Shown: in pieces, positions 5,510 through 42,741 of the stretch
How positions within the stretch are numbered: position 1 is the first letter of the stretch
Layout: every line of letters begins with the position of its first letter
Source of the DNA: a virus
Taxonomy: Duplodnaviria > Heunggongvirae > Uroviricota > Caudoviricetes
Strand: one strand, 5' to 3'
DNA: 64,000 nucleotides
IMG/VR virus record: IMGVR_UViG_2537561979_000003
Made by a program: the position numbers and the translations under genes
Notes under the pieces: model-generated
What the model was told of the DNA's origin: nothing
Seen by the model: only the letters and a program-made list of their open reading frames with translations
Database searches by the model: none

Positions 5510-5871
5510 CACTATCAGCTATTGAGTTAATGGACCTCAGCGATAAGTTGGATGCTCTGATGTCCAAAGCGGCTACCGCGAGTGGCATGGAGTTGCTGGA
5601 TATCAGCGATGAAATTGACCAGATCATGCAACAGATGGGGTACGGCGCGTCCGGCGGCAGTAGTGGCGAGGAAAAACAACCTTCGGTACATGATGGTGTG
5701 CCAAAACTGGTTGCTGATTTCCTGGCTGATAAATTCGTCGATCAGAGCACTGATGCATTTATCGGTACGTTACAGGACTTGAGTCAATATGTTGGCACAT
5801 ACATCGACCTGGACCAGGTTAAACAGCACACGGCGGCATGGATAGCCGCCAACATTAAAGAGGCAGCGTGA
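5506..5871 (+). CDS. ddrA: DdrA-like small protein
   Basis: 121-aa ORF overlapping the darA stop; synteny. Confidence 0.5.
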   Translation: MTLSAIELMDLSDKLDALMSKAATASGMELLDISDEIDQIMQQMGYGASGGSSGEEKQPSVHDGVPKLVADFLADKFVDQSTDAFIGTLQDLSQYVGTYIDLDQVKQHTAAWIAANIKEAA

Positions 5872-7218
5872 CATCCTCCACGCCCCGAAGGGCGTGGATT
5901 CCTGCTACGTTCAGGCTGTCGCCTGAATCATTTCGGTGGGTTCCTGCTTCAACGGGCGGCCTGACTGCACCATCCCTCCACAGGCAAGTACGGCGTGCCC
6001 CGCCGCTAAAATGTTACGAGCGCCGTTTACATCGGCGTTCGCTGTATATCCACATACCTGGCATCTGAATTTACTTTGTGACAGGCGATTTTCTTTCGCT
6101 GTATGACCACAGCACGCGCAACGCTGGCTTGTGTACGCTGGCGGAACAGCAAGCACCTGACCGCCACGCCAGAGCTGCTTGTACTCAAGCTGGCGGCGCA
6201 TTTCATACCAGCCCTGATCCAGTATCGAACGGTTTAAACCTGATTTTGCCCGGACATTGCGACCCGGATGACTTATCGTTCCCGCCGCTGACTTTGACAT
6301 GTATTTAACCTTCAAATCCTCAATGACAATCATTGCGTGGTTTTTGCTGACGGTCGTTGTGACTTTGTGAAGGTAGTCCCTGCGGATATTTGCGATACGG
6401 GAATGCAGTCGCTGTATTTTGCGTTTCTGCTTCTGCCAGTTGTTGCTGAATTTGACCTTGCGGCTTAACTGTCGCTGAAGTCTCGCCAGCTTCTTCTGGT
6501 TTTTCTGAAAACTATTTACAGGTTCAAAGACTGTGCCATCTGACAGCGTGGCGAGTTTAGCCACGCCAGCATCCAGTCCGACCATTGATGCTGAAGGGTG
6601 AACAGGAGTGGATACCTCTCTTTCTGTCTGAATACTGATGTACCACTTACCGCAGGACTGGCTGACAGTAACATTTTTCACAATACCCGTGACCTGACGG
6701 CTATTCCGGTAGCGCATCCAGCCAAGTTTCGGCAGAAAAATACGGCTGTTTTCCTGATCGAGCTTAACACCCTGCGGGTAGCGGAATGCATCATTCTGTC
6801 CCCGCTTTTTGAATCGGGGAAAAGCTGCCCGATTCTGGAAGAAGTTTTTGTAAGCCCGCTCAAGGTCTTTCAGTGACTGTTGCAATGGCTGTGAGGGAGA
6901 ATCTTTAAGCCATTCGGTTTCAGTGTCTTTTTTCCACTCAACCAACCAGGAAGCCATTTTCGTGTAAGGGATGTATTTTTTACCGGCCTCATGATTCTCA
7001 TTCTGAAGCGCCAGAGCACGGTTGAAAACGAAACGACAAGCTCCGGCAAAGCGCCTCATTTGACGCTCCTGTTGACCATCTGGTTTTAACCGGAATTTGA
7101 ATGACACCTGTTGTTTCATGTCACTATTTTAAGCAAAAATAGCCGGGAGGAAAACTGTGCCTTATATCCCCACTATGAGGAGCGTAGGGGGCGGCACATT
7201 GGATAAGGCGTAACAGGG
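5872..7218 (-). mobile_element. IS200/IS605-family tnpB-only insertion element (boundaries approximate)
   Basis: Fills the exact gap between the ddrA-like stop (5871) and ddrB-like start (7219); GC-rich hairpin ccacgccc-cgaa-gggcgtgg at 5878-5897 just 3' of tnpB. Confidence 0.5.
5911..7119 (-). CDS. tnpB: TnpB (OrfB), RuvC-like nuclease with C-terminal zinc ribbon
   Basis: 402 aa; conserved blocks ...[17 protein letters not shown]... (RuvC-I Asp) and ...[37 protein letters not shown]... (zinc ribbon plus RuvC-III). Confidence 0.85.
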
Positions 7219-10206: not shown

Positions 10207-10504
10207 AATCGCAGCGCCATTAGGTGGAGATGCCATTATCGAATTTGATGATAATGAAGAAGTTTCCGGGCGTTTAAGCATTATCTCCGGTGACATTACC
10301 GAGGACATGATCGCTGAAGCCATAGCTGGGGCAAATCCCAATAGCTATATGGGATTCGTTAACACCCTTGATGCTCCCGCAAGTGATGTTCTCCGAACGC
10401 TGCATCTTTACGCTGGCTGGTTTGTTGATTGGCCAGCAGTAGATGGTGGCGATGAGGACGACGACGATGATTTTGGTGATCATGTAGACCAGATCGTATA
10501 TTGA
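10196..10504 (+). CDS. hypothetical acidic protein (C-terminal DEDDDDDFGD)
   Basis: 102-aa ORF overlapping the end of the 995-aa gene; followed by a terminator. Confidence 0.4.
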   Translation: MQIKIAAPLGGDAIIEFDDNEEVSGRLSIISGDITEDMIAEAIAGANPNSYMGFVNTLDAPASDVLRTLHLYAGWFVDWPAVDGGDEDDDDDFGDHVDQIVY

Positions 10505-10507
10505 AGA

Positions 10508-10536
10508 AATCCCGCCACTCGGCGGGATTTTTTTTA
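10508..10536. terminator. rho-independent terminator (bidirectional candidate)
   Basis: aatcccgcc-actc-ggcgggatt hairpin followed by a T7 run; an A-run precedes it, giving the same architecture on the other strand. Confidence 0.55.
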
Positions 10537-11316
10537 ATCGCTTTCCACTTCTTCCGTGGTGTTTTCTTGCAGTTCTGTTAATGCAGCACGACATAGGTTC
10601 CGGGCATTGGCTATAGCCACACTTTTGACTTCATCCGTCATCGTGCAGGTAATGTACTGATCGAGTTCTTCAGCGCGGATGATGCTTTTGCCAATCAGAA
10701 ACTGTATTTGCCAGAGCAGATCGGCATCCATAATCAGAATTTCTGCCGGGCCTTCAGGGCCAGCCGGGAAGGAAACATAAGACTGTTTGCCCAGGCCGAC
10801 AACTCGACAACTTGCTTCAAGAATTGCGCGCTTGAGGTCTGACTTTATAACGGAAACAGGTTGATTTTCACCAGTGATTACGCCGTTGACATGGAAAGGC
10901 ATGTAGCTTGAAATACGCTCCACTTTCCACACGCCAGCAAGCGATCCTTCATGCAGCACAATGGGGGTAACCGCGAGTTTCATCTCACCATATAGCTGCT
11001 GGCAGATAGCTGGATTGCTGAATACATCTAAAGGCTCACATTCAAACAGCGGCGCAATCTGCATGAGGTCCATCATGGTCATCCCTGGGGTACGAGCAGT
11101 AATGAATCTGCGCATACCAGTATCCATTGCGCTCCAGATTGCTACACCATGCTTTTTGCTCACTTCTTCAGTAAAGCCAAGGTGGCACATGATGGTTTTT
11201 TCGATAGCCAGATCAGAGATCGAAACCTTTTCGCCAGGCACACCATCATTATTGATGGTCACTTCGACACTCTGACCATTACGCAGGCGGTATTGAATTG
11301 CTTTAGTATTTTCCAC
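10534..11316 (-). CDS. hypothetical protein
   Basis: 260-aa ORF, no recognisable motif. Confidence 0.5.
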   Translation of the reverse strand: MENTKAIQYRLRNGQSVEVTINNDGVPGEKVSISDLAIEKTIMCHLGFTEEVSKKHGVAIWSAMDTGMRRFITARTPGMTMMDLMQIAPLFECEPLDVFSNPAICQQLYGEMKLAVTPIVLHEGSLAGVWKVERISSYMPFHVNGVITGENQPVSVIKSDLKRAILEASCRVVGLGKQSYVSFPAGPEGPAEILIMDADLLWQIQFLIGKSIIRAEELDQYITCTMTDEVKSVAIANARNLCRAALTELQENTTEEVESD

Positions 11317-11322
11317 GTTAAA

Positions 11323-12000
11323 TCACTCCACTACAAACCAGTCACATGCCAGTAAGTCGCCTACAGAAGGAACCCACGGAACAACTACACCTTGTGCATT
11401 TTTTAAGGCGAAATAAGCACCATACGGAACGAGGTCGCCGGGGAAATATCCCTTAATGGCTTCCATTCGTGCCGGGTACTGTCCTTCAGGAACCAGCCAG
11501 CAGAATTGGTTTTCGCCGTTCCACCCGCGTCGAGCAACTTTCTTGCCATCCTTCAGCCACATCAGCGCGTCAGAAAAGTCGGCTGCTTCAAGGTCGATTT
11601 CTTCTTGTGTGGTAATGATGCCACTGGCAGCAATAGTTACGTCCCTGGCTGTAATGAATGTCACCCCATTGTGACCTTCAATACTGAGCGATACCCCATT
11701 TTCGAAGAAGTCGTTAGTCCGACTAAAGCCTTCTTCAAATGTTTTTTCTGGTGAATAGGACAGAGATCCGTCCTCATAAGCGACCAGATATCCGCCAATT
11801 TCTGGTCGGTGTTTTTGCAAAAACATTTTATCAACATGGACTTTTACCCCTTCTGGCTCAACGACTTCGATGTTGCAAAAAAGGACCACATCCATTAGGG
11901 CGATAATTTCGATATCTTTGATTTTTGAGGCGCGAACTGTTTTATGGCTTTTGTATTTTGGAAGTGCCGTCAAAAGCTCTTTCGTTGTCATGTTATTCAT
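11323..12000 (-). CDS. hypothetical protein; start moved to the internal ATG
   Basis: AGAGGA SD 6 nt upstream of the ATG for MNNMTTKELL; the longer track ORF lacks an SD. Confidence 0.5.
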   Translation of the reverse strand: MNNMTTKELLTALPKYKSHKTVRASKIKDIEIIALMDVVLFCNIEVVEPEGVKVHVDKMFLQKHRPEIGGYLVAYEDGSLSYSPEKTFEEGFSRTNDFFENGVSLSIEGHNGVTFITARDVTIAASGIITTQEEIDLEAADFSDALMWLKDGKKVARRGWNGENQFCWLVPEGQYPARMEAIKGYFPGDLVPYGAYFALKNAQGVVVPWVPSVGDLLACDWFVVE

Positions 12001-12705: not shown

Positions 12706-12722
12706 AAATAAATTAGAGCAAT
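12706..12722 (-). promoter_or_regulatory. C1 operator-like site upstream of ssb
   Basis: Minus strand reads ATTGCTCTAATTTATTT, 14/17 to the consensus ATTGCTCTAATAAATTT. Confidence 0.55.
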
Positions 12723-23988: not shown

Positions 23989-24027
23989 ACTTTCCGCCCT
24001 TTTGCCCGGTCTATCGCCGGGCATCTT

Positions 24028-24669
24028 TCAGAGATAATTACCTTTACCTGTCAATTCCCCTTGTGGTACTTGTTTTTGCGCCAGTGTTTGGGTTCCGCGA
24101 ATTATGTTAATCAGAGGGCTTAGTAACGATGGTTCCTGGCGTGCCTCAACTTCTCCAGCCATTGCCCTGATGTAGTCGGAGCTTGCAACGTTGTTGTATT
24201 CCGTTGCGAAGCAGCATAACAACGTCAGAACGTGCTCTGTCGTTATTTCGCTCCAGTTGATGTTGAAAAATTCATCGCCTTTTTTATCGTGTTCGGAATC
24301 GAAGATGCTTTGGTGGAGGATGTATTTGCCGGATTCCTTGCGCGGTAACTTGATCGCTTTCTGGCGTTCCAGCTCCTTGTAAATCTGCATTGCTTCAATC
24401 AGTACCGGCCTGCCGTTCATGAAGGGATCGCGCAACCTTACACGCTGGCCAACTCGACCAGTAATAAAGCTGTTTTCCTCTTCCACCAGCACGATAAAAC
24501 CCTTTTCCTCTTTTTCTCGCAATTCGCGCAGCAGCTGGAGTTCCATATCGCGGCGGCGTTCAGGGTAGCTGGTCCGCTCAGCCATTATTAGCTCATTGTT
24601 GATCCATGCGGCAGTCATTGACGCCGGTTTGCCGACGCTCATCGAAACAACGCATATTTTCTTATCCAT
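24028..24669 (-). CDS. hypothetical protein (Mat-like by position)
   Basis: ORF adjacent to ref; start set at MDKKICVV with a GGGG SD. Confidence 0.35.
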   Translation of the reverse strand: MDKKICVVSMSVGKPASMTAAWINNELIMAERTSYPERRRDMELQLLRELREKEEKGFIVLVEEENSFITGRVGQRVRLRDPFMNGRPVLIEAMQIYKELERQKAIKLPRKESGKYILHQSIFDSEHDKKGDEFFNINWSEITTEHVLTLLCCFATEYNNVASSDYIRAMAGEVEARQEPSLLSPLINIIRGTQTLAQKQVPQGELTGKGNYL

Positions 24670-27892: not shown

Positions 27893-28102
27893 ATGGCTTT
27901 CATTCAACCAACCATCGACGACGTTAGACATTGCTCTAACGCTTTATCTGTAGACCCTGCCGAAACCGACGCTGCCCGCGCCATTGCTGAACACTACTCA
28001 AAGATATCCAATCAGGAGTACCGCATCACCCAAGACGACCTTGATGATCTCACTGACACAATCGAATATCTCATGGCAACTAACCAGTTAGACTCACAAT
28101 AA
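27893..28102 (+). CDS. coi: Coi (C1 inactivator), 69 aa
   Basis: 69-aa acidic ORF immediately upstream of c1 with GAGG SD; size and position as P1 coi. Confidence 0.8.
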   Translation: MAFIQPTIDDVRHCSNALSVDPAETDAARAIAEHYSKISNQEYRITQDDLDDLTDTIEYLMATNQLDSQ

Positions 28103-28212: not shown

Positions 28213-29064
28213 ATGATAAATTATGTCTACGGCGAACAACTGTACCAGGAGTTCGCCAGCTTCAGGGATCTCTTTCTAAAAAAAGCTGTTGCACGCGCCC
28301 AACACGTTGATACAGCCAGCGACGGTCGTCCTGTACGCCCGGTTGTCGTTCTACCGTTCAAAGAAACTGACAGCATTCAGGCTGAAATTGATAAATGGAC
28401 TTTAATGGCGCGGGAACTGGAACAGTACCCAGACCTCAATATCCCAAAGACTATTTTATATCCAGTGCCTAACATCCTTCGCGGTGTGCGTAAGGTTACA
28501 ACTTATCAGACAGAAGCTGTGAACAGCGTCAACATGACCGCTGGCCGCATTATTCATCTGATTGATAAGGACATTCGCATCCAAAAAAGCGCGGGGATCA
28601 ATGAACACAGTGCGAAATACATAGAGAACCTGGAAGCAACAAAAGAGCTAATGAAGCAGTACCCGGAGGATGAAAAATTCCGTATGCGCGTACACGGCTT
28701 TAGCGAAACAATGCTGCGCGTCCACTACATTTCCAGTAGCCCTAACTACAATGATGGTAAATCAGTTAGTTACCATGTGCCACTGTGTGGCGTGTTTATC
28801 TGCGATGAAACTCTCCGTGATGGAATTATCATCAACGGTGAATTCGAAAAAGCAAAATTTAGCCTTTATGACTCCATAGAACCGATCATCTGCGACCGCT
28901 GGCCGCAAGCAAAAATATATCGCCTGGCAGATATTGAAAATGTAAAAAAACAAATTGCCATCACTCGCGAAGAGAAAAAGGTTAAGTCAGCCGCATCAGT
29001 TACGCGCAGCCGTAAAACCAAGAAGGGGCAGCCAGTAAACGACAACCCCGAAAGCGCGCAATAA
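28213..29064 (+). CDS. c1: C1 repressor of lysis, 283 aa
   Basis: 283 aa, GGAGGAGG SD; position between coi and the packaging genes; cognate operators dispersed through the window. Confidence 0.9.
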   Translation: MINYVYGEQLYQEFASFRDLFLKKAVARAQHVDTASDGRPVRPVVVLPFKETDSIQAEIDKWTLMARELEQYPDLNIPKTILYPVPNILRGVRKVTTYQTEAVNSVNMTAGRIIHLIDKDIRIQKSAGINEHSAKYIENLEATKELMKQYPEDEKFRMRVHGFSETMLRVHYISSSPNYNDGKSVSYHVPLCGVFICDETLRDGIIINGEFEKAKFSLYDSIEPIICDRWPQAKIYRLADIENVKKQIAITREEKKVKSAASVTRSRKTKKGQPVNDNPESAQ

Positions 29065-29096
29065 ATTATGCCCGGCATCAACCGGGCATTCTTCCA

Positions 29097-30209
29097 TTAT
29101 TCAGCCGCCACCGGTTTTAACAAGCCAGCATCTAGCAGTTTACGCGTCAACCACTGCTGGCCTTTACCCGTTAATTGAGGCGTCAACCGTATCTGGTAGC
29201 CATCTTCATCATCCAGCACCACTTCTTTCACCGTGAAATACCCCGCGTTGATGTACTGCTGGAACGGCACATTTTTACGTCCACCGGACGCTATCAGGAT
29301 GCCGTTCTCCCGTAACCAGACAAACAGCGCGTTTTGCTTAAGTCCAACAACCTTTGCAAAATTCCCAATCAGGATCCCTTTAGCTACTGATACCCGGTCG
29401 GCAAAATCGACTTTAGGAGCGGCGGCCACCAGCTGCTGATTTAGCTGGTGGGCTTTCTGTTCCAGAAGCTGCTTTTGTTCAGCCAGTTCGGCAGCTAGGC
29501 GCAGAGCTTCTGGAAGCGTCTGGGGGATTGCAACCGGTTGCTGTTCTTTTTGCCGGAAGTAGCTGTCTTCCAGTTTTTCAAAGAATGCCCATGCTTCATT
29601 TGTGTCCACGATCTTAGACATGCGTGCAGCGCCGCGCTCTGTCCAGAGTGTAAGGCTTCTGGCGTTCTTACCAACAGAGTAACTTCCGGTTACTCTGTTC
29701 TTAAATTCTCTTAATTTTAAACCAGTTAGAAGAAAGTAATGCTTACCTTCTTCAAAGCGGTCAAGGTTGCGAGACAAATTGTTGCGAATATTGGCTTCAT
29801 CGACCCCATACCCTCTAGCAAGAGTTTCGGTTGTCACGACACGTACTCCCTGCCATTCCAGAACGGGAATTTCATCCGGCTGATTCTGAACAACCACCAG
29901 TTCCGATTCCTGAACTGAAGGTGCATAAATTTTTTCTGATTTAACGTTAGTTGCTTTCATTCTGTGTGCCTCCTTGCGTGCTTCGGCTGCGACGGTTGCG
30001 TAATTCAGATGCCCCTGTTCGAGCAGGTATTCGCGGATATCAGACAGCAGGATACGGTGAACCGCGTTCTTGTCCTTTCTCCGGTAAAGTTGTTTGGTGA
30101 TCATGAAGTAGTTGGCAATAACGCCAGGTATATCCCTGGTACTGATACAGGCAGTGTGCTGTTCAATTGCCTCGATCATCTCTTCACGGGTAACTAACGA
30201 TGTTCTCAT
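29097..30209 (-). CDS. antirepressor-like protein (ORF6N-type N-domain plus KilA-C-type C-domain), 370 aa
   Basis: Central block VVTTETLARGYGVDEANIRNNLSRNLDRFEEGKHYFLL and C-terminal DFADRVSVAKGILIGNFAKVVGLKQNALFVWLRENGIL resemble phage Ant/KilAC antirepressors; start overlaps the stop of an upstream 73-codon ORF. Confidence 0.7.
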   Translation of the reverse strand: MRTSLVTREEMIEAIEQHTACISTRDIPGVIANYFMITKQLYRRKDKNAVHRILLSDIREYLLEQGHLNYATVAAEARKEAHRMKATNVKSEKIYAPSVQESELVVVQNQPDEIPVLEWQGVRVVTTETLARGYGVDEANIRNNLSRNLDRFEEGKHYFLLTGLKLREFKNRVTGSYSVGKNARSLTLWTERGAARMSKIVDTNEAWAFFEKLEDSYFRQKEQQPVAIPQTLPEALRLAAELAEQKQLLEQKAHQLNQQLVAAAPKVDFADRVSVAKGILIGNFAKVVGLKQNALFVWLRENGILIASGGRKNVPFQQYINAGYFTVKEVVLDDEDGYQIRLTPQLTGKGQQWLTRKLLDAGLLKPVAAE

Positions 30210-30427
30210 AGTCCCTCCTGAGCAGAAGCGTTAACAGGGAGGCACCAGTAACTGAGAGAATTGCGTGAATCAGTGGAAAAACGGGCAGAGAAAATACATG
30301 GGGCGTCAGGAAGCTGAGAACGTGCCTCATCTTCTGTCGGTGCAATAACGAAGTGATAGTGACGTTTTTGGCAGGAGTAAAAGCGCCAGATAAATTCAGG
30401 ATGAGCAGGGGTAGGGATAGTAGCCAC
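30206..30427 (-). CDS. Icd-like 73-codon ORF translationally coupled to the antirepressor (GTG start)
   Basis: GGAGG SD 8 nt upstream of GTG; stop overlaps the antirepressor ATG (cTATGAga). Confidence 0.4.
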   Translation of the reverse strand: MATIPTPAHPEFIWRFYSCQKRHYHFVIAPTEDEARSQLPDAPCIFSARFSTDSRNSLSYWCLPVNASAQEGL

Positions 30428-30429
30428 AA

Positions 30430-30766
30430 TGGCAGCCTCCTTTTGCTAATTTAAGGAGCTACCGCGTGAGGTCTCAATCTCAATGGCGGTAGCACTGACT
30501 GGGTTGAGACTACCGGCGCAAAAGGGAACCGGCCTGCCTTTCGGCAGCCCAGCCAGCACTACCATTGATCTCTGAGCTAAACGCTACGTATGGCTGTGCG
30601 ATGGCATGACACAAAAAAAGACGCTTTTGGCGTCTGTGTCGCCTTTTGCATTATCCGGGGTCTCAATCCCGGCACCCGTTTTAATGAGGTGCCTGATAAG
30701 CATAAACCGAAAATGCCTCAAGGCGCAAGAGGTCAGGTTCAATGTAACATCGGCAGTTAAAAAACA
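30430..30766 (-). promoter_or_regulatory. structured leader region with alternative-pairing elements and an internal intrinsic terminator
   Basis: Minus-strand hairpins ccggg-AUUGAGAC-cccgg and cuaccgc-...UUGAGAUUGAGAC...-gcgguag, an upstream complementary GUCUCAA segment, and terminator agacgc-caaaa-gcgtct plus T7 (plus coordinates about 30618-30645). Confidence 0.4.
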
Positions 30767-30783
30767 CAATTTATTAGAGCAAA
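30767..30783 (-). promoter_or_regulatory. C1 operator-like site at the head of the antirepressor leader
   Basis: Minus strand TTTGCTCTAATAAATTG, 15/17 to consensus. Confidence 0.55.
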
Positions 30784-30786
30784 TAT

Positions 30787-32271
30787 TCATTCATTAAGCC
30801 ATGCCAGAGCTTCATCAACCTGCGCTTCGTCTTCGACGCTAAGCACTTCATCCTGGGGAACATAATCCGCCAGCATAGCGAAACAATATGTATCCCAATG
30901 GTCTGGTGAGTGCAGGTTGAGTTTTTTCTTCATATCCTCCTTACTCATCACCTTCCATTGACCTGCGGAGTTAATCCCTACAGGGATTTTCGACGCTTCC
31001 TCAATAGTTTCATTACCCTTATCCAGTCTCATACGACCAGATTTTACGGCCTCTGCGGCTTGAACGTTGGCATAAGCACGTTTATCAAAGTACAGGCTCT
31101 TATCTTCACGGCTATGCATCTTTTTACCCCAGCGTATACGCTGTACGGTAATACCATAATACTCGTACATCAGATCCGCCGTTGCTTTACCCAGGCCATC
31201 GCCGTCTATCGCTATGGTGATATTGGGGAATCGCTCAGGATTACATTCTGCGAAAATTTTGGCGGCAAGCTGCGTTTCTGTAACGTCTGTGTATTCCAGC
31301 ATTCGATAGTTGATTACACGGCGTTTATTTCTCTGGCCGGACACCATCATGATATTGATAACGGACTTATCCCTTCCCGTGCCACCAGCAACGTCCACAC
31401 ATGCAAGCCAGCCCCATCCTTTGGCAATCTTGACTTTCCGCCGCGTTGCGCGTTCAACCTCATCACGTCCAAGAAGGAAGCCATCCTGTGATTTAGGGAA
31501 TAGGCCGCGTACCTTAATCATGTACATAGGGTTATCACGCCCACCGTACTCCGCCAGCTTCATTTTGATAAATGCTGGCGTTACCAACGGTGATTCCTCA
31601 CTGTTAAGCGTGATCGCCGTATAAACGCCATCAGGGTTACCAGGACGCTTGGCCAGTTTATGGTGTGTATCGTAGAAATAGCCGCTTGGGCGTGTAGGCT
31701 GTGACAGCAATAAGATGCGGTTATCCTGTCCGGTAAGAGCACCGGTGATGATACCGAAAGCTCTATCACTGACACCGGAGGCTTCATCGATAATATACAG
31801 AAGATGATCTGCGTGTTCACCGGCGAGAGCTTCTTCACTTCCCAGACGAAAGCCCTTCGGTACTACAGTCCATACACCTTTACCAGTAACCTCATAGAAA
31901 GCGGTTTCTGTCAGAACAAAATAATCAGCAAGCCATGGAAAACGGCTGGTGGCAGTAGCCCAGTTTATCTTGATGTACTTGAATATACCGGTCATTACCT
32001 GCTGAATTTTGTTCGCAACGATAATGGCTCGGGCACCGGGATACATGATTATGAACAACATGATCATGATAGAAGTCATGTCTGATTTCCCGGTACCATG
32101 ACCAGACGAAACAGATGTCTTGCTACCCTGTTCCTGCACAGACTCAATAATCAGATCCTGCTGCCAGGTAGGTGTTTTGCCGAACAAAACATCAGCGGCC
32201 GCAATCCAGTCATAACGATATAGCGCCACCAGCTCGCGCCAACGTGGATCCGTTACGCAACTTCTGGCCAT
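30787..32271 (-). CDS. pacB: terminase large subunit PacB, 494 aa
   Basis: Terminase ATPase/nuclease fold (Walker [11 protein letters not shown]); start overlaps the pacA stop; size matches P1 PacB. Confidence 0.85.
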
Positions 32272-36761: not shown

Positions 36762-37169
36762 GTGCTTTGTTTGGCAGATAACTATGATGAAGCCTGTGAA
36801 CTTGCCGAAAGACAGCAGGCAAGCTGGGTAAAAACACGGTCTGAACCGACATTCATGTTTTCAAAAGAACCGCCATTTATACTGGCGAGGATGCCGCAGC
36901 GACCGGATCATCAACAAGAAATTGTTGCTGAATTTTCCTCAAGGGATGAGATGAATCTCTTCTCATTAAAGCAGGAAGAAAGGGATCGCGTCGAAGTGTC
37001 TCCAACTCTCGACCACAACCGGATGAACCTGGCCCAGCTCGCCTGGTACAGCAAAGAATTAGAGATGTCTATTGCCCGGCTTGAAAACGAAAAAGCCGCT
37101 ATCCAAGTCCAGCACGAAGTAGTTCTGAACCGGATTAGAGAAATGCAAAACGATAACAGGGGATTTTGA
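36762..37169 (+). CDS. hypothetical protein with C-terminal coiled coil; start unresolved (no in-frame ATG with SD)
   Basis: Open frame extends upstream to 36678; a 30-codon ORF with good SD (36585-36677) sits in another frame just upstream. Confidence 0.35.
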   Translation: MLCLADNYDEACELAERQQASWVKTRSEPTFMFSKEPPFILARMPQRPDHQQEIVAEFSSRDEMNLFSLKQEERDRVEVSPTLDHNRMNLAQLAWYSKELEMSIARLENEKAAIQVQHEVVLNRIREMQNDNRGF

Positions 37170-37526
37170 ATGGCTAAAATCGAGTACCATCGCGATCGCG
37201 GTAATTACCTGGAAATATACGATCATGAATCTCTTAACGATATCAACGATGCGTTATATGAATACTGTGAAAAAACGAGCATCACAGATGCACCTGATGC
37301 ATTTGTCGAGCTGCCGGTATATCTCCGCGACATCTATGCAATACGAACACCGCCCGTATCGGTGATTCACATTGGCTATGTCCGCCTGTCCATCGAAGAA
37401 GATGAAGATCGTTATATCGTGCGCCACTATACATTGGACAGAAAAGAACTTCCTAATGAATGGAACATGAGTAATTTCTACAACGGTGAATATGGCTTAA
37501 AATCCGCTAATAATTTACGGTCATAA
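37170..37526 (+). CDS. hypothetical protein, translationally coupled to the upstream ORF
   Basis: TGAATG stop-start junction; 118 aa; no recognisable motif. Confidence 0.4.
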   Translation: MAKIEYHRDRGNYLEIYDHESLNDINDALYEYCEKTSITDAPDAFVELPVYLRDIYAIRTPPVSVIHIGYVRLSIEEDEDRYIVRHYTLDRKELPNEWNMSNFYNGEYGLKSANNLRS

Positions 37527-38371
37527 TCTATACAGGCATGTATAACAACAACGAGTCTATTAGCTGTCAACAACGTTATTTCCTCAAATAAGAAAAAGCA
37601 GAAAACAAATTATTTAAGGTCACAAATTGTGGCCTTGATGGAGGAGGGAGGCTTATTGGCTATGGCTAAAAATCAAATTAGACACTTCATGTTGCTGTAG
37701 CTCATCAAGATCCGAGGCCACAAAACCTTTTCCGAAAAACTTCACAAGTAACTCACTAGCCGCATCATTGTCACCTATTACACGAAAGTCATACGGCAAC
37801 GTCGCAAGTTGACGATGTAATCCTGCTGAGAAAGTCGAATCTAACAGCGCCCAGAATTCCCACCGCAGGATAATACTCGCCTCTTAATACTGTATATATG
37901 TTGTTACGATATGTTTTTCTGTCTCTAAAAAAAGATGTTTGAAGGGGATAAAAATATACAATTCCAACAAACGTTATTTTTAACAATTTTTTTCTTTGCG
38001 TTGACTTTCCCGGACACCTTGTCTGACCGAAGGTGCGCGAAAGCCACTTTTTCCTTCCTGAGTTATCCACAAAGTTATGCACTTGCAAGAGGGCCATTTT
38101 CTACATATTGTGGTGGCTAACAGATGAAATGAATGTAGATTAATTGAAGATAAGGAGAAAATTTGAGATGCAATCATGACGTTAATAGATAGGGTCTGCA
38201 TTACAGACCCCACCCGCATCAAGGAATTAGCCGTTCCCTGATGTTTTTCCGAAAACATGTGCCGTAAGCTCACGTTAACGACTTTCATTCACCGAATCCA
38301 ACTATATAGGGGTTGGGTTTCTACGTCAACGTGAGCAAGTGCACCTTTACATTTGACAAGGAACCACCTGA

Positions 38372-38947: not shown

Positions 38948-39825
38948 ACTTCACCCTCGCTTGTATCACCAGCGTCCACCAACGACAATAAAGCCCTGGC
39001 CATCTTATGAACCAACAGTGCATCAATAATGCCAAGCGTATGCCCCGGCTTAATGTTTAATGCTGCCTCAAGATGACACCTTTCCAGACCGCTTTTCTCG
39101 GCTTGTTTATGATGATATGGCGTAATAACGTCGCCCAAAACACGGCTAATTCTTTCTCGTAATTGCTGGGTGCCAGCACACTTGATCGCTGTATCGTGGA
39201 GACGGTTAACCAGTTCGCGATAAACATGCGGCTTAATGCGGATACGTTCACCGGTGACGCCCTTTCCTGGCGTAGGCACCGAACTATCCGGAATATCCGG
39301 ATAGTTGCCAGCCAGTCTACGCAAAACAGCCTTAATTGCATCAATACGGTCATCATCAACTTTTTCTACAATATTGGAATTTAAATACTTCGAAGCCTTG
39401 CTATGCCAATCGCTGGTTTTAGGGTCTTGTCCATCCATCAAACGCCAAGCTTCAGCGATTAACTCATAGCCAGTAACAGTGGCTTCCTGCGCATCACCAA
39501 TCAGTTGTGTGATCTCTCTTTCAAGCATGCTTAGAGCGTTAGGCATTGGTTTTTCTTCCGGTACTACTGGAACGGGGGGAGCGGCGTAGACCTCAATAAT
39601 TCCATTATCAATAGGCCATTCTCCATCCTTGAGGTAGTCACTTGTGCCGTCAACTTGCTGTTCTGCAATGTGGAATGCACCTATTGGTTTTGCTTCCAGT
39701 GATGCCAGAGCAATTCGTGCCAGTTCTTCCGCTTCTTCTGCTGGCAGTACAACGTTGCTACCAGGTCCGTATGTTTCGCGCCACTGCTTGATTGTCAGTA
39801 GTCGCTCTTTGGTAATAGTGATCAT
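38944..39825 (-). CDS. hypothetical protein
   Basis: 293-aa ORF overlapping its neighbours' stops and starts. Confidence 0.5.
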   Translation of the reverse strand: MITITKERLLTIKQWRETYGPGSNVVLPAEEAEELARIALASLEAKPIGAFHIAEQQVDGTSDYLKDGEWPIDNGIIEVYAAPPVPVVPEEKPMPNALSMLEREITQLIGDAQEATVTGYELIAEAWRLMDGQDPKTSDWHSKASKYLNSNIVEKVDDDRIDAIKAVLRRLAGNYPDIPDSSVPTPGKGVTGERIRIKPHVYRELVNRLHDTAIKCAGTQQLRERISRVLGDVITPYHHKQAEKSGLERCHLEAALNIKPGHTLGIIDALLVHKMARALLSLVDAGDTSEGEV

Positions 39826-40971: not shown

Positions 40972-41639
40972 TGGTTGCCTCCTTTGCGAAGCTGTTCAGC
41001 AATACTTACGCATATCTCTGCGCCTCTAATCAGCCCCGGAACGTTCTTGTTTGGCCCAACTTCACCATCAACAAAATCAATCATCGCGTTACGAGCCATA
41101 TCCACCCCCTGCGCCCGAACTTCAGCCAGGAAAGCGTCGGTGGCTGGAATTTGCGGCATCCCTCCGTCTGTTGCGCAGATATACGCATCAGATATTTCAT
41201 CCTGCTGGCCATCAAACACGTAGCAACAGCCCCTGATAAACAGCTTCATTGAGGCATTCTCCACTGCCAGCGCCGTGCGATTACCATCCAGCTCTGCAAT
41301 ACGCTGTTTTGCGGCATCCAGTTCAATCGACAATTTTTCCAACTGCTCTTGATGCTTCTTGTATTCCTGATATGCGTGCCAAGACTGACCTTTGCGCACA
41401 CTATCAGTGATATCAGTAATCTGTTCTGGTGTTAGCGTGGCCAGTGGCTGTGATGGGAAAATAAGCACTTTCCCGGAATCCCAATCAAAACCAGCGTGAA
41501 TTGACTGAACCTCAACTGAAGGTGTTGAACCAATGCTGCCAGGCGAATGAACAACGATCGTTACATCCATATCGCGACGATGGCTGTGGTTGTTGGACAA
41601 AATACGATTCACCAACTCAGAAAATTTGGAAAATTTCAT
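40968..41639 (-). CDS. hypothetical protein (paralogue family A)
   Basis: Shares ...IPATDAFLAEVRAQG... and a C-terminal AEQLRKGGNQ-type tail with the ORF at 41923-42741. Confidence 0.45.
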   Translation of the reverse strand: MKFSKFSELVNRILSNNHSHRRDMDVTIVVHSPGSIGSTPSVEVQSIHAGFDWDSGKVLIFPSQPLATLTPEQITDITDSVRKGQSWHAYQEYKKHQEQLEKLSIELDAAKQRIAELDGNRTALAVENASMKLFIRGCCYVFDGQQDEISDAYICATDGGMPQIPATDAFLAEVRAQGVDMARNAMIDFVDGEVGPNKNVPGLIRGAEICVSIAEQLRKGGNQ

Positions 41640-41959
41640 GCTGATTCCCCTTTCTCTGCTCTCTCCTGTCGGAACATCACTATCATCAGGTCGCCTTTTG
41701 TCGCTATCCTGGCTGTTGTACCTGGTTCAATGCGGCTAAGCTCAAATGCGTCATAGAACGCTTCTAATGCCTTCTGGCGTAGTTCCTGTTTGCGCCGTTT
41801 TTTCCACTGTTTTAGGAAAATGGAACCCAGCCATCGCCATGTACGGGACATGATGTAAAGCCAACCGAGAAGTGCCAGACCGGTATTTAGGAGCGTATCG
41901 ATCGTTATTGTCGTGTCGATATTCACTGGCTGCTTCCTTTGCGAATCTGTTCCGCCCAT
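41636..41959 (-). CDS. hypothetical small membrane protein
   Basis: 107-aa ORF with a hydrophobic segment LLNTGLALLGWLYIM. Confidence 0.35.
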   Translation of the reverse strand: MGGTDSQRKQPVNIDTTITIDTLLNTGLALLGWLYIMSRTWRWLGSIFLKQWKKRRKQELRQKALEAFYDAFELSRIEPGTTARIATKGDLMIVMFRQERAEKGESA

Positions 41960-42741
41960 TCTTCAAGGGATTTCTCCGCATATTCACCAGACAGGCCATC
42001 AATCGGATGCGCTTCATTAGCCAACTCTTCTTTCGCTGACAAAATCATGCGTGTAACGTCGAAAACTTCACGCAAAGACTTATTGATAAATCCGTGATTG
42101 AACGCAGCAGCAAGACGGCTGGCGGTATAGTTAATCCCCTCGTTGCGTGCTTCCGCACGTACTTCAGCAAGGAAAGCATCGGTGGCTGGGGTTTCGACAT
42201 TAGGTCGAAGCTCATAATCACAAACTCTTTCAATCCATGGTGATACTCTGTCGCATTTCCTCTTCTTGCGTTCACCGACCTTGGTTGCCTGCTGAATAAT
42301 TACCCCCCAGCAAATGCTTTCGACCTCTTCGCTCCATCCATCGCAAGCATCGCCTCTATAGTCGTCAATTGCAGCCTCAGCAGCAGCGATAGCCTCCTCA
42401 GCAGTTTTGTGACACTCGAAACTAAATTCAGAGCCATATGAGAAATACATAGCCCCGGCCTTCAGTCTTGCATTCTCCGCTGCCAGCGCCGCGCACTTGG
42501 CCTCAAGAGCGGCAACCACTTCCTGATGGTCTTTGTACTTAACGTATGAGCCGGAGATGTCATCACCTTCGGTGTTTAGCCATGCGTCATTGCAATTCAC
42601 TGCGTAGGTTCTGATGCTCATGCTGATGCTCTCCCGCCCCTGACAGACGCCAGGCCAGTCAATAAAGTATCCGCAATGCCTACCCTCAGACGTGCGCGCA
42701 GGATAAATGCCGTTATGACCGGCAAAATATATGCTACCCAT
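41923..42741 (-). CDS. hypothetical protein (paralogue family A); 5' end possibly frameshifted
   Basis: C-terminal region paralogous to 40968-41639; an overlapping ORF (42618-42800) in another frame carries the MSKINYQELREAAEQA N-terminus. Confidence 0.4.
   Translation of the reverse strand: MGSIYFAGHNGIYPARTSEGRHCGYFIDWPGVCQGRESISMSIRTYAVNCNDAWLNTEGDDISGSYVKYKDHQEVVAALEAKCAALAAENARLKAGAMYFSYGSEFSFECHKTAEEAIAAAEAAIDDYRGDACDGWSEEVESICWGVIIQQATKVGERKKRKCDRVSPWIERVCDYELRPNVETPATDAFLAEVRAEARNEGINYTASRLAAAFNHGFINKSLREVFDVTRMILSAKEELANEAHPIDGLSGEYAEKSLEEWAEQIRKGSSQ

Follow-up and report, generated by a model that had tools for sequence, protein, structure and literature searches.

A candidate second immI-type antirepressor operon with its own antisense-RNA code at the pacB-c1 junction of a P1-like phage-plasmid

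The DNA analysed here, referred to as the window, is a 64,000-nucleotide (nt) stretch of a P1-like phage-plasmid (IMG/VR record IMGVR_UViG_2537561979_000003; Caudoviricetes), and its subject is an extra unit of about 1.72 kb between the genes pacB and c1. Most probably, this unit is a working second operon of the immI type that belongs to the isrK/C4 lineage, and in which an antirepressor would be held off by the operon's own processed antisense RNA. On sequence comparison, the unit is a complete paralogue of P1 immI. The evidence comes from its anatomy and homology, from co-variation in a three-way RNA pairing and in the stems of the C4 RNA, from purifying selection on its two genes, and from its distribution.

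Architecture of the pacB-c1 unit

The window runs as the reverse complement of the P1 map. In reference P1, the stop codons of pacB and c1 converge 24 bp apart, whereas in the window this spacer is replaced by a unit that lies wholly on the minus strand (29066-30786). Homology to P1 ends at the pacB stop codon and restarts at the c1 stop codon; compared with P1, whose spacer is only 24 bp long, the unit is therefore an insertion or a replacement. It begins with a promoter overlaid by a C1-operator-like site, followed by an isrK-type leader, a C4 RNA, an icd-like gene and an Ant1/Ant2-type antirepressor gene, as listed here in the direction of transcription (ORF, open reading frame; SD, Shine-Dalgarno sequence; aa, amino acids).

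30783-30767, minus strand: C1-operator-like site TTTGCTCTAATAAATTG, matching the C1 consensus ATTGCTCTAATAAATTT at 15/17 positions
30741-30769, minus strand: upstream promoter candidate, with -35 TTGTGT (30769-30764), a 17-nt spacer and -10 TACATT (30746-30741), from alignment with the annotated P1 promoter
30699-30728, minus strand: downstream promoter candidate, with -35 TTGCGC (30728-30723), an 18-nt spacer and -10 TATGCT (30704-30699), placed by alignment with P1
30692-30614, minus strand: isrK-type leader RNA (Rfam RF01394, model positions 1-77, at 59 bits where the gathering score is 50)
30666-30660, minus strand: a1, UUGAGAC, in a hairpin loop of the leader
30649-30642, minus strand: b1, GCAAAAGG, in the leader
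30635-30613, minus strand: intrinsic terminator of the leader (30635-30619 followed by U7), from a terminator scan
30569-30482, minus strand: C4 antisense RNA (Rfam RF01695, matched over its full length 1-87, at 75 bits where the gathering score is 45)
30525-30518, minus strand: b', CCUUUUGC, in the loop of the second C4 hairpin
30510-30504, minus strand: a', GUCUCAA, in the single-stranded stretch after the second C4 hairpin
30477-30436, minus strand: C4 target region in the icd-ant mRNA, with a2 UUGAGAC and b2 GCAAAAGG
30477-30471, minus strand: a2, UUGAGAC
30446-30439, minus strand: b2, GCAAAAGG, overlapping the icd SD by four bases
30427-30206, minus strand: icd-like gene, 73 aa, GTG start, SD AAGGAGG at 30442-30436
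30209-29097, minus strand: Ant1-type antirepressor gene, 370 aa, from Pfam, PHROG and BLASTP against P1 Ant1
29960-29097, minus strand: predicted Ant2-type product nested in the same frame, starting at Met84 and 287 aa long, preceded by a separate SD (AAGGAGGCACACAGAATG at 29975-29958)
29068-29089: G+C-rich hairpin between the converging ant and c1 stops, from the terminator scan of the minus strand, T-rich on both sides and likely a two-way terminator

The neighbouring genes of the window frame this unit.

27059-26028, minus strand: cre
27893-28102, plus strand: coi
28213-29064, plus strand: c1
32271-30787, minus strand: pacB
33464-32271, minus strand: pacA

A preliminary description of the window had read this junction as an immI layout of operator, regulatory RNA, icd and ant, and every element that it listed is present on the minus strand. 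These include the C1 operator at 30767-83, the intrinsic terminator inside the leader, and a 73-codon ORF whose strong SD is AAGGAGG and whose stop overlaps the antirepressor start in ATGA. Alignment to the reference junctions, which that description had named as its refuting test, found the unit absent from both P1 and P7. That P1 carries the same gene at this junction is ruled out, P1, P7 and phiW39 having a short spacer only.

The likeness to immI amounts to true paralogy, as operator and promoters align with those of P1, the Rfam models for C4 and isrK are matched, and the two proteins are 81% (Icd) and 57% (Ant1) identical to their P1 counterparts. The unit occupies the interval between pacB and c1, not that between sim and kilA-repL as immI does. 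In the phages JL22, RCS47 and vB_EcoM-673R5 (673R5), the canonical immI site is separately occupied, so the pacB-c1 unit is a paralogue and not the immI locus itself.

The operator-like site overlaps the -35 element of the upstream promoter candidate and aligns with P1 Oc4 (Op51). It is kept in 35/35 IMG/VR modules at the pacB site, where its sequence has three minor variants. Its place at the operon promoter predicts that it serves as a C1-controlled operator. The upstream candidate is the positional homologue of the C1-controlled P1 promoter P2c4/P51a, and the downstream candidate that of P1c4/P51b; the latter is also found in D6, where the operator is absent. Sites with at most two mismatches to the C1 consensus number eight in the window, against 0.01 expected by chance. 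The other seven lie at 12706, 27638, 43553, 49318, 59362, 59373 and 62895, those at 59362-59389 forming an overlapping inverted pair, and are consistent with the dispersed C1 regulon of P1.

Leader and C4 RNA

The minimum free energy z-score of the leader is -5.6, and its terminator is kept in 75/75 related loci. It scores as isrK and not as c4-a1b1 (RF03163), though both a1 and b1 are present, whereas the leaders of P1, JL22-canonical, D6-20k and E. albertii score as RF03163. The two copies within one genome thus belong to different leader lineages. Across eight homologues, the stems of the C4 RNA show compensatory double changes in 11 of 23 pairs, with none broken in the long stem.

Both recognition segments of C4 are fully complementary to two target copies each, a' at 7/7 and b' at 8/8 positions. 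The second of these pairs, b' CCUUUUGC against the two copies of GCAAAAGG, covers the SD and had been missed by the preliminary description. Other RNA details of that description stand in part. It had placed UUGAGAC in two hairpin loops; both copies exist, but only the first sits in a convincing loop. The complementary GUCUCAA, placed upstream of them, is present but lies between the two copies, inside C4. Copies of the ctaccg/cggtag motifs, proposed to form three mutually exclusive pairings, also exist, but in the Rfam model and in the consensus fold alike, CUACCG forms the 3' side of the C4 basal stem, opposite 5' UGGUAG. Neither fold nor co-variation supports a three-way ctaccg/cggtag switch, which we reject.

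An ORF of 68 aa at 30790-30584 (gp120 of JL22) covers the operator, the two promoter candidates and the isrK RNA in full, and is probably non-coding. Its only family match is a weak one to PHROG (E = 3.6e-4), and the result of the conservation script was ambiguous. The Prokaryotic Genome Annotation Pipeline (PGAP) annotates a shorter "ash family protein" within this region.

A recognition code distinct from that of canonical immI

The code of P1, taken from GenBank features, consists of a' CUGUCAA and b' UCACUAAC, with targets UUGACAG (a1/a2) and GUUAGUG (b1/b2). The C4 RNA of the window is predicted to pair with its own targets at -17.1 kcal/mol, compared with -2.7 kcal/mol on P1-type, +0.6 kcal/mol on P7-type and -2.5 kcal/mol on JL22-canonical targets. 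P1 and P7, a pair classically shown by experiment to be heteroimmune, give predicted duplexes of -6.1 and -4.8 kcal/mol in the two directions. Measured against this heteroimmune pair, the extra switch and the canonical one should be mutually blind. The idea of a second immunity specificity, raised in the preliminary description, is thus backed by RNA complementarity.

Scanning IMG/VR with a 24-nt invariant piece of this C4 backbone gave 71 loci, in which two a-alleles (UUGAGAC and UUGGAAC) and two b-alleles (GCAAAAGG and GUCAAAGG) occur in all four combinations. Among the complete loci, a' agrees with a2 in 70/70, and b' with both b1 and b2 in 70/70. The two-base differences between alleles have changed in step at three separate places, as between RCS47 and the window. 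A further allele sits on a divergent backbone (673R5, NZ_CP027133), where pairing is kept through G.U wobbles. There are thus at least two a-codes and at least two b-codes on one C4 backbone, plus a third backbone type, and the three-way complementarity is kept.

One IMG/VR contig (3300045988_157941) carries two of these loci, L047 and L064, which are identical from C4 to icd and have different upstream leaders. It supplies one of the only two mismatches between a1 and a', and may reflect either a genuine recombinant or a chimera created by assembly across the repeat.

The icd-like and antirepressor genes

The icd-like product matches NCBIfam NF033153 (Icd-like; 49.8 bits against a cut-off of 25) and PHROG 1426, and is predicted to inhibit division. 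The frame is intact in 34/34 pacB-site loci. Its ratio of nonsynonymous to synonymous substitution rates (dN/dS) is 0.09, against about 2 in the two other frames. An alternative 81-aa ORF with a TTG start (30429-30184; gp121 in JL22) is rejected as the wrong frame on this contrast.

The 370-aa protein is probably an antirepressor, with C1 as its predicted target. It matches PHROG 63 (anti-repressor Ant; 1.6e-135) and carries two Pfam domains, ORF6N in the centre (E = 2.5e-18) and the KilAC/ANT domain at the C-terminus (ANT, PF03374; E = 6.5e-31, residues 258-359). Identity to P1 Ant1 is uneven, at 64% over the N-terminal 85 aa, 24% over the central 143 aa and 87% over the C-terminal 142 aa, and the centre of P1 Ant1 has no Pfam domain where this protein has ORF6N. 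A sequence search of the PDB with Ant returned only chance matches to ribosomal protein L9. The SD-to-ATG context of the nested Ant2 start, AAGGAGGCACAyAGAATG, is the same as at the annotated ant2 starts of P1 and P7, and this start is kept in 26/26 evaluable related loci. For ant, dN/dS is 0.115 in the N-terminal part and 0.016 in the C-terminal part. Both icd and ant are therefore under purifying selection.

Distribution and co-residence with canonical immI

The extra unit occurs at the same junction in JL22 (98% identity), RCS47 and 673R5, and phi456 retains a remnant truncated by IS1. Each of the first three carries a full-length canonical immI as well, that of JL22 being a hybrid with the a-code of P1 and the b-code of P7. 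In the plasmid database PLSDB, 796 records match the flanks and 259 of them have the module in between, the others having an uninterrupted junction. Complete E. coli genomes (5,426 in all) gave 766 with a match, and the module is present in 242 of these. Its frequency is about one third in both sets.

The same leader backbone also appears elsewhere. It is found at the canonical immI site before kilA in pCREC-629_2 (locus L015, 2960-4659) and in about 12 viral contigs, and in D6-like elements it drives a Rha-type antirepressor with no C1 operator. The plasmid pMTY10828_p0111 has isrK-type modules at both sites, which differ from each other in both a and b. In the E. albertii plasmid pEA40_1 (locus L016, 2580-4301), an immI-type module lies between the mat-side block and c8-cre and uses another b-code, ACGAAUG/CAUUCGU.

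The module was noted in print in pTZ20_1P and RCS47 by Venturini et al. (PMC6906374), without analysis. Its public annotation is inconsistent. PGAP routinely annotates icd and ant, and places the "ash family protein" coding sequence over the isrK RNA; the RCS47 record has only one of the genes, labelled ant, and 673R5 has a shortened ant annotation. In JL22 (locus L001, 2972-3217 and 2611-2817), the wrong frame gp121 is called instead of icd, and ant is named 'roi'.

Proposed mechanism and alternative readings

The mechanism of P1 immI, on which our proposal is modelled, was reportedly established by Heinrich, Citron and Schuster. Transcription, processing, the translational block and the action of Ant on C1 would, by analogy with work on P1/P7 and Gifsy-1, proceed as follows. 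Two promoters, placed as in P1 immI, would start transcription. With the C1 operator overlapping it, the upstream one would be closed in a lysogen, while the downstream one is probably constitutive. The leader would adopt an isrK-type fold with a1 and b1 on display, and many transcripts would end at its terminator as a short RNA. Transcripts that read through would carry C4, icd and ant. C4 would be cut from these transcripts, and its a' and b' segments would pair with a2 and b2, the latter on the icd SD, preventing translation of Icd and with it synthesis of the coupled Ant1.

If the cognate C4 were missing or titrated, Icd and Ant1/Ant2 would be made. This may happen on entry into a cell that lacks that type of C4, and possibly where the a1/b1 short RNA soaks up C4. 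Ant would then antagonise C1, and Icd would delay division. Given that the a/b code is mismatched to canonical P1/P7-type codes, the two switches would work independently. A lysogen would be immune only to those relatives whose every ant operon it can silence, and a two-switch phage could break the immunity of one-switch relatives.

Several steps have precedents. The GenBank notes of P1 annotate a1, b1, a2, b2, C4 and the icd-ant coupling. Ant1/Ant2 is described as an antirepressor whose synthesis is repressed by c4 RNA (PMC8546580), and for IsrK, read-through, trans-activation and coupled translation of an antirepressor have been reported (PMC4825925).

The best-placed alternative to a translational block, though one we consider unlikely, is that control occurs mainly by transcription attenuation as in P4, with C4 pairing enforcing termination at the leader terminator or through Rho, and with the short leader RNA acting as an anti-antisense activator, as IsrK does in Gifsy-1. 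The assignment of the leader to isrK, where P1 has the c4-a1b1 type, is in keeping with this view, as is the strong intrinsic terminator kept in every related locus. IsrK itself activates translation in trans and has been described as a structural homologue of P4 seqA (PMC4825925). However, b2 overlaps the SD exactly as in P1, which points to occlusion of the ribosome-binding site, and the ATGA coupling of icd and ant is kept. Attenuation and translational block are, moreover, not mutually exclusive.

A further alternative keeps the RNA switch but makes the antirepressor a cargo directed against something other than C1, such as the repressors of other resident prophages, or a host or defence factor. 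The Gifsy antirepressors offer a precedent for action on other prophage repressors, and a swapped central domain would set a different target. The centre is indeed unrelated to that of P1 Ant1, and the replacement by ORF6N means that target specificity could differ. Among pacB-site modules this central segment is mosaic, at 72-100% nt identity compared with 93-100% in the flanks, and the D6-like elements show the same leader driving a Rha-type antirepressor without a C1 operator. Nevertheless, the N-terminal segment and the KilAC domain remain close to P1 Ant1, the nested Ant1/Ant2 arrangement is kept, the conserved operator wires the unit to C1, and the unit adjoins c1 in the 259 plasmids. 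We judge such a cargo role improbable, although, given its swapped and mosaic ORF6N centre, this Ant may have a different or broader target.

It is highly improbable that the unit has lost its function and survives only as a decaying duplicate or a scar of recombination. Damaged relatives exist (phi456 cut by IS1, the shortened ant annotation of 673R5 and 4/25 truncated ant genes), but icd and ant are under strong purifying selection, the RNA elements show triple compensatory changes, operator, terminator and Ant2 start are all conserved, and the unit is present in 242 complete E. coli genomes. A non-functional relic is ruled out by dN/dS and co-variation.

For the proposal of a functional second immI-type operon itself, some observations count on the other side. 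A generic promoter scan called neither promoter candidate, and the upstream one is proposed from its homology to the P1 promoter. Over its central 143 aa the antirepressor is only 24% identical to P1 Ant1, with ORF6N instead, and among the complete ant genes of related loci 4/25 are truncated. The a1 copy disagrees with a'/a2 in 2/70 loci, and may be the less important one. Finally, the window does not include the canonical immI of this phage, and co-residence of the two switches is inferred from the 98%-identical JL22.

Relation to known systems

The unit shares with the immI loci of P1 and P7 its gene order, its strand logic and a C1 operator over the upstream promoter. The C4 RNA belongs to the same Rfam family; for each of its two recognition segments there is one target upstream and another downstream, and b2 lies on the icd SD. 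Icd (81%), the ATGA coupling, the nested Ant2 start with its SD context and the Ant C-terminus (87%) are likewise shared. In contrast, the unit lies at the pacB-c1 junction and not between sim and kilA-repL, its leader is of the isrK and not the c4-a1b1 family, its a/b code does not cross-pair, and the central domain of its Ant is ORF6N. It is, additionally, an extra copy in JL22, RCS47 and 673R5.

In P4 immunity, CI causes premature termination of replication-gene transcription, and icd and ant genes are not known to be involved. As predicted for the present unit, a small RNA (CI, with seqA/seqC) is processed from the leader of the operon that it controls and has complementary sites up- and downstream (PMC4825925).

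The Gifsy-1 isrK-orf45 (STnc1160)-anrP locus of Salmonella (Hershko-Shalev 2016, PMC4825925) has an isrK leader with its own terminator and read-through, a processed downstream RNA complementary to IsrK, and a short ORF whose stop overlaps the antirepressor start in AUGA, all as seen or predicted here. It differs in its coupled ORF, which in Gifsy-1 is a 45-codon frame over the C4 region, whereas the window has a conserved Icd homologue 3' of C4. The extra unit is also tied to P1 C1 by its operator, and no antQ-type downstream target is in view. Action of the short IsrK RNA in trans on the read-through mRNA and its binding of Hfq are known for Gifsy-1 only (PMC4825925).

The second C4-icd module of D6 (MF356679, at about 75.1 kb) is 95% identical over leader, C4 and icd start and has the same a/b allele as the window. 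It differs in having no C1 operator upstream, a Rha-type antirepressor, and a location between ref and pmgF.

By profile matching, all components of the unit fall within curated families: C4 and isrK of Rfam, the Icd-like family of NCBIfam, and ANT and ORF6N of Pfam. In the literature searched, we found no statement of the unit as a full c4-icd-ant operon with its own operator, none that its code and the canonical one are orthogonal, and no account of the unit as a small set of alleles that occur in combinations. The unit reveals no new mechanism, and adds a natural, compact set of orthogonal antisense-RNA/target pairs.

Other features of the window

Several stretches of the window depart from P1 or JL22. 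Between the ddrA and ddrB homologues, a 1.3-kb non-P1 stretch (5867-7203) contains a 402-aa ORF on the minus strand (5911-7119) with zinc-finger-like CxxC motifs at its C-terminus, which presumably resembles TnpB of the IS200/IS605 family. IS609 insertions in related plasmids were mentioned by Venturini 2019. The P1 segment with IS1/isaB (P1 22532-24245) is missing from window 10502-11997, where about 31 bp stand instead, and 11312-11997 holds an extra 685 bp with no match in P1 1-30000. At 23995-24073, the window lacks the P1 genes res and mod for type III restriction-modification (P1 3424-9742, including IS5), leaving only about 78 bp between the mat-side and lxc-side homology blocks.

Three stretches (37119-38033, 39310-39691 and 40982-42796) have no match to JL22, which is otherwise 96-99% identical; they fall upstream of the pmg/pap genes, in a variable early region made up of small ORFs. 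Three tRNA genes on the minus strand (56852-56924, 58555-58627 and 58633-58705) correspond to the annotated tRNA cluster of JL22.

Implications for immunity among P1-like phage-plasmids

P1-like phage-plasmids are common carriers of extended-spectrum beta-lactamase and other resistance genes in E. coli and Salmonella, and it is their immunity systems that decide whether two of them can coexist or whether one excludes or induces the other. It is conceivable, although we hold this view only tentatively, that the pacB-c1 junction is a dedicated slot for an extra, combinatorially evolving immunity lock, and that the extra module acts offensively. If so, natural P1-like phage-plasmids would fall into many more heteroimmunity groups than classical P1 and P7. 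A two-lock phage entering a one-lock lysogen would express an unsilenced Ant, and the resident would be induced or displaced, while the lysogens of the two-lock phage would resist both types. This would amount to an RNA-coded competition among co-circulating plasmid prophages, many of them with resistance genes. If the switch works as we infer, c1 and canonical immI alone will not suffice for typing the immunity of these elements.

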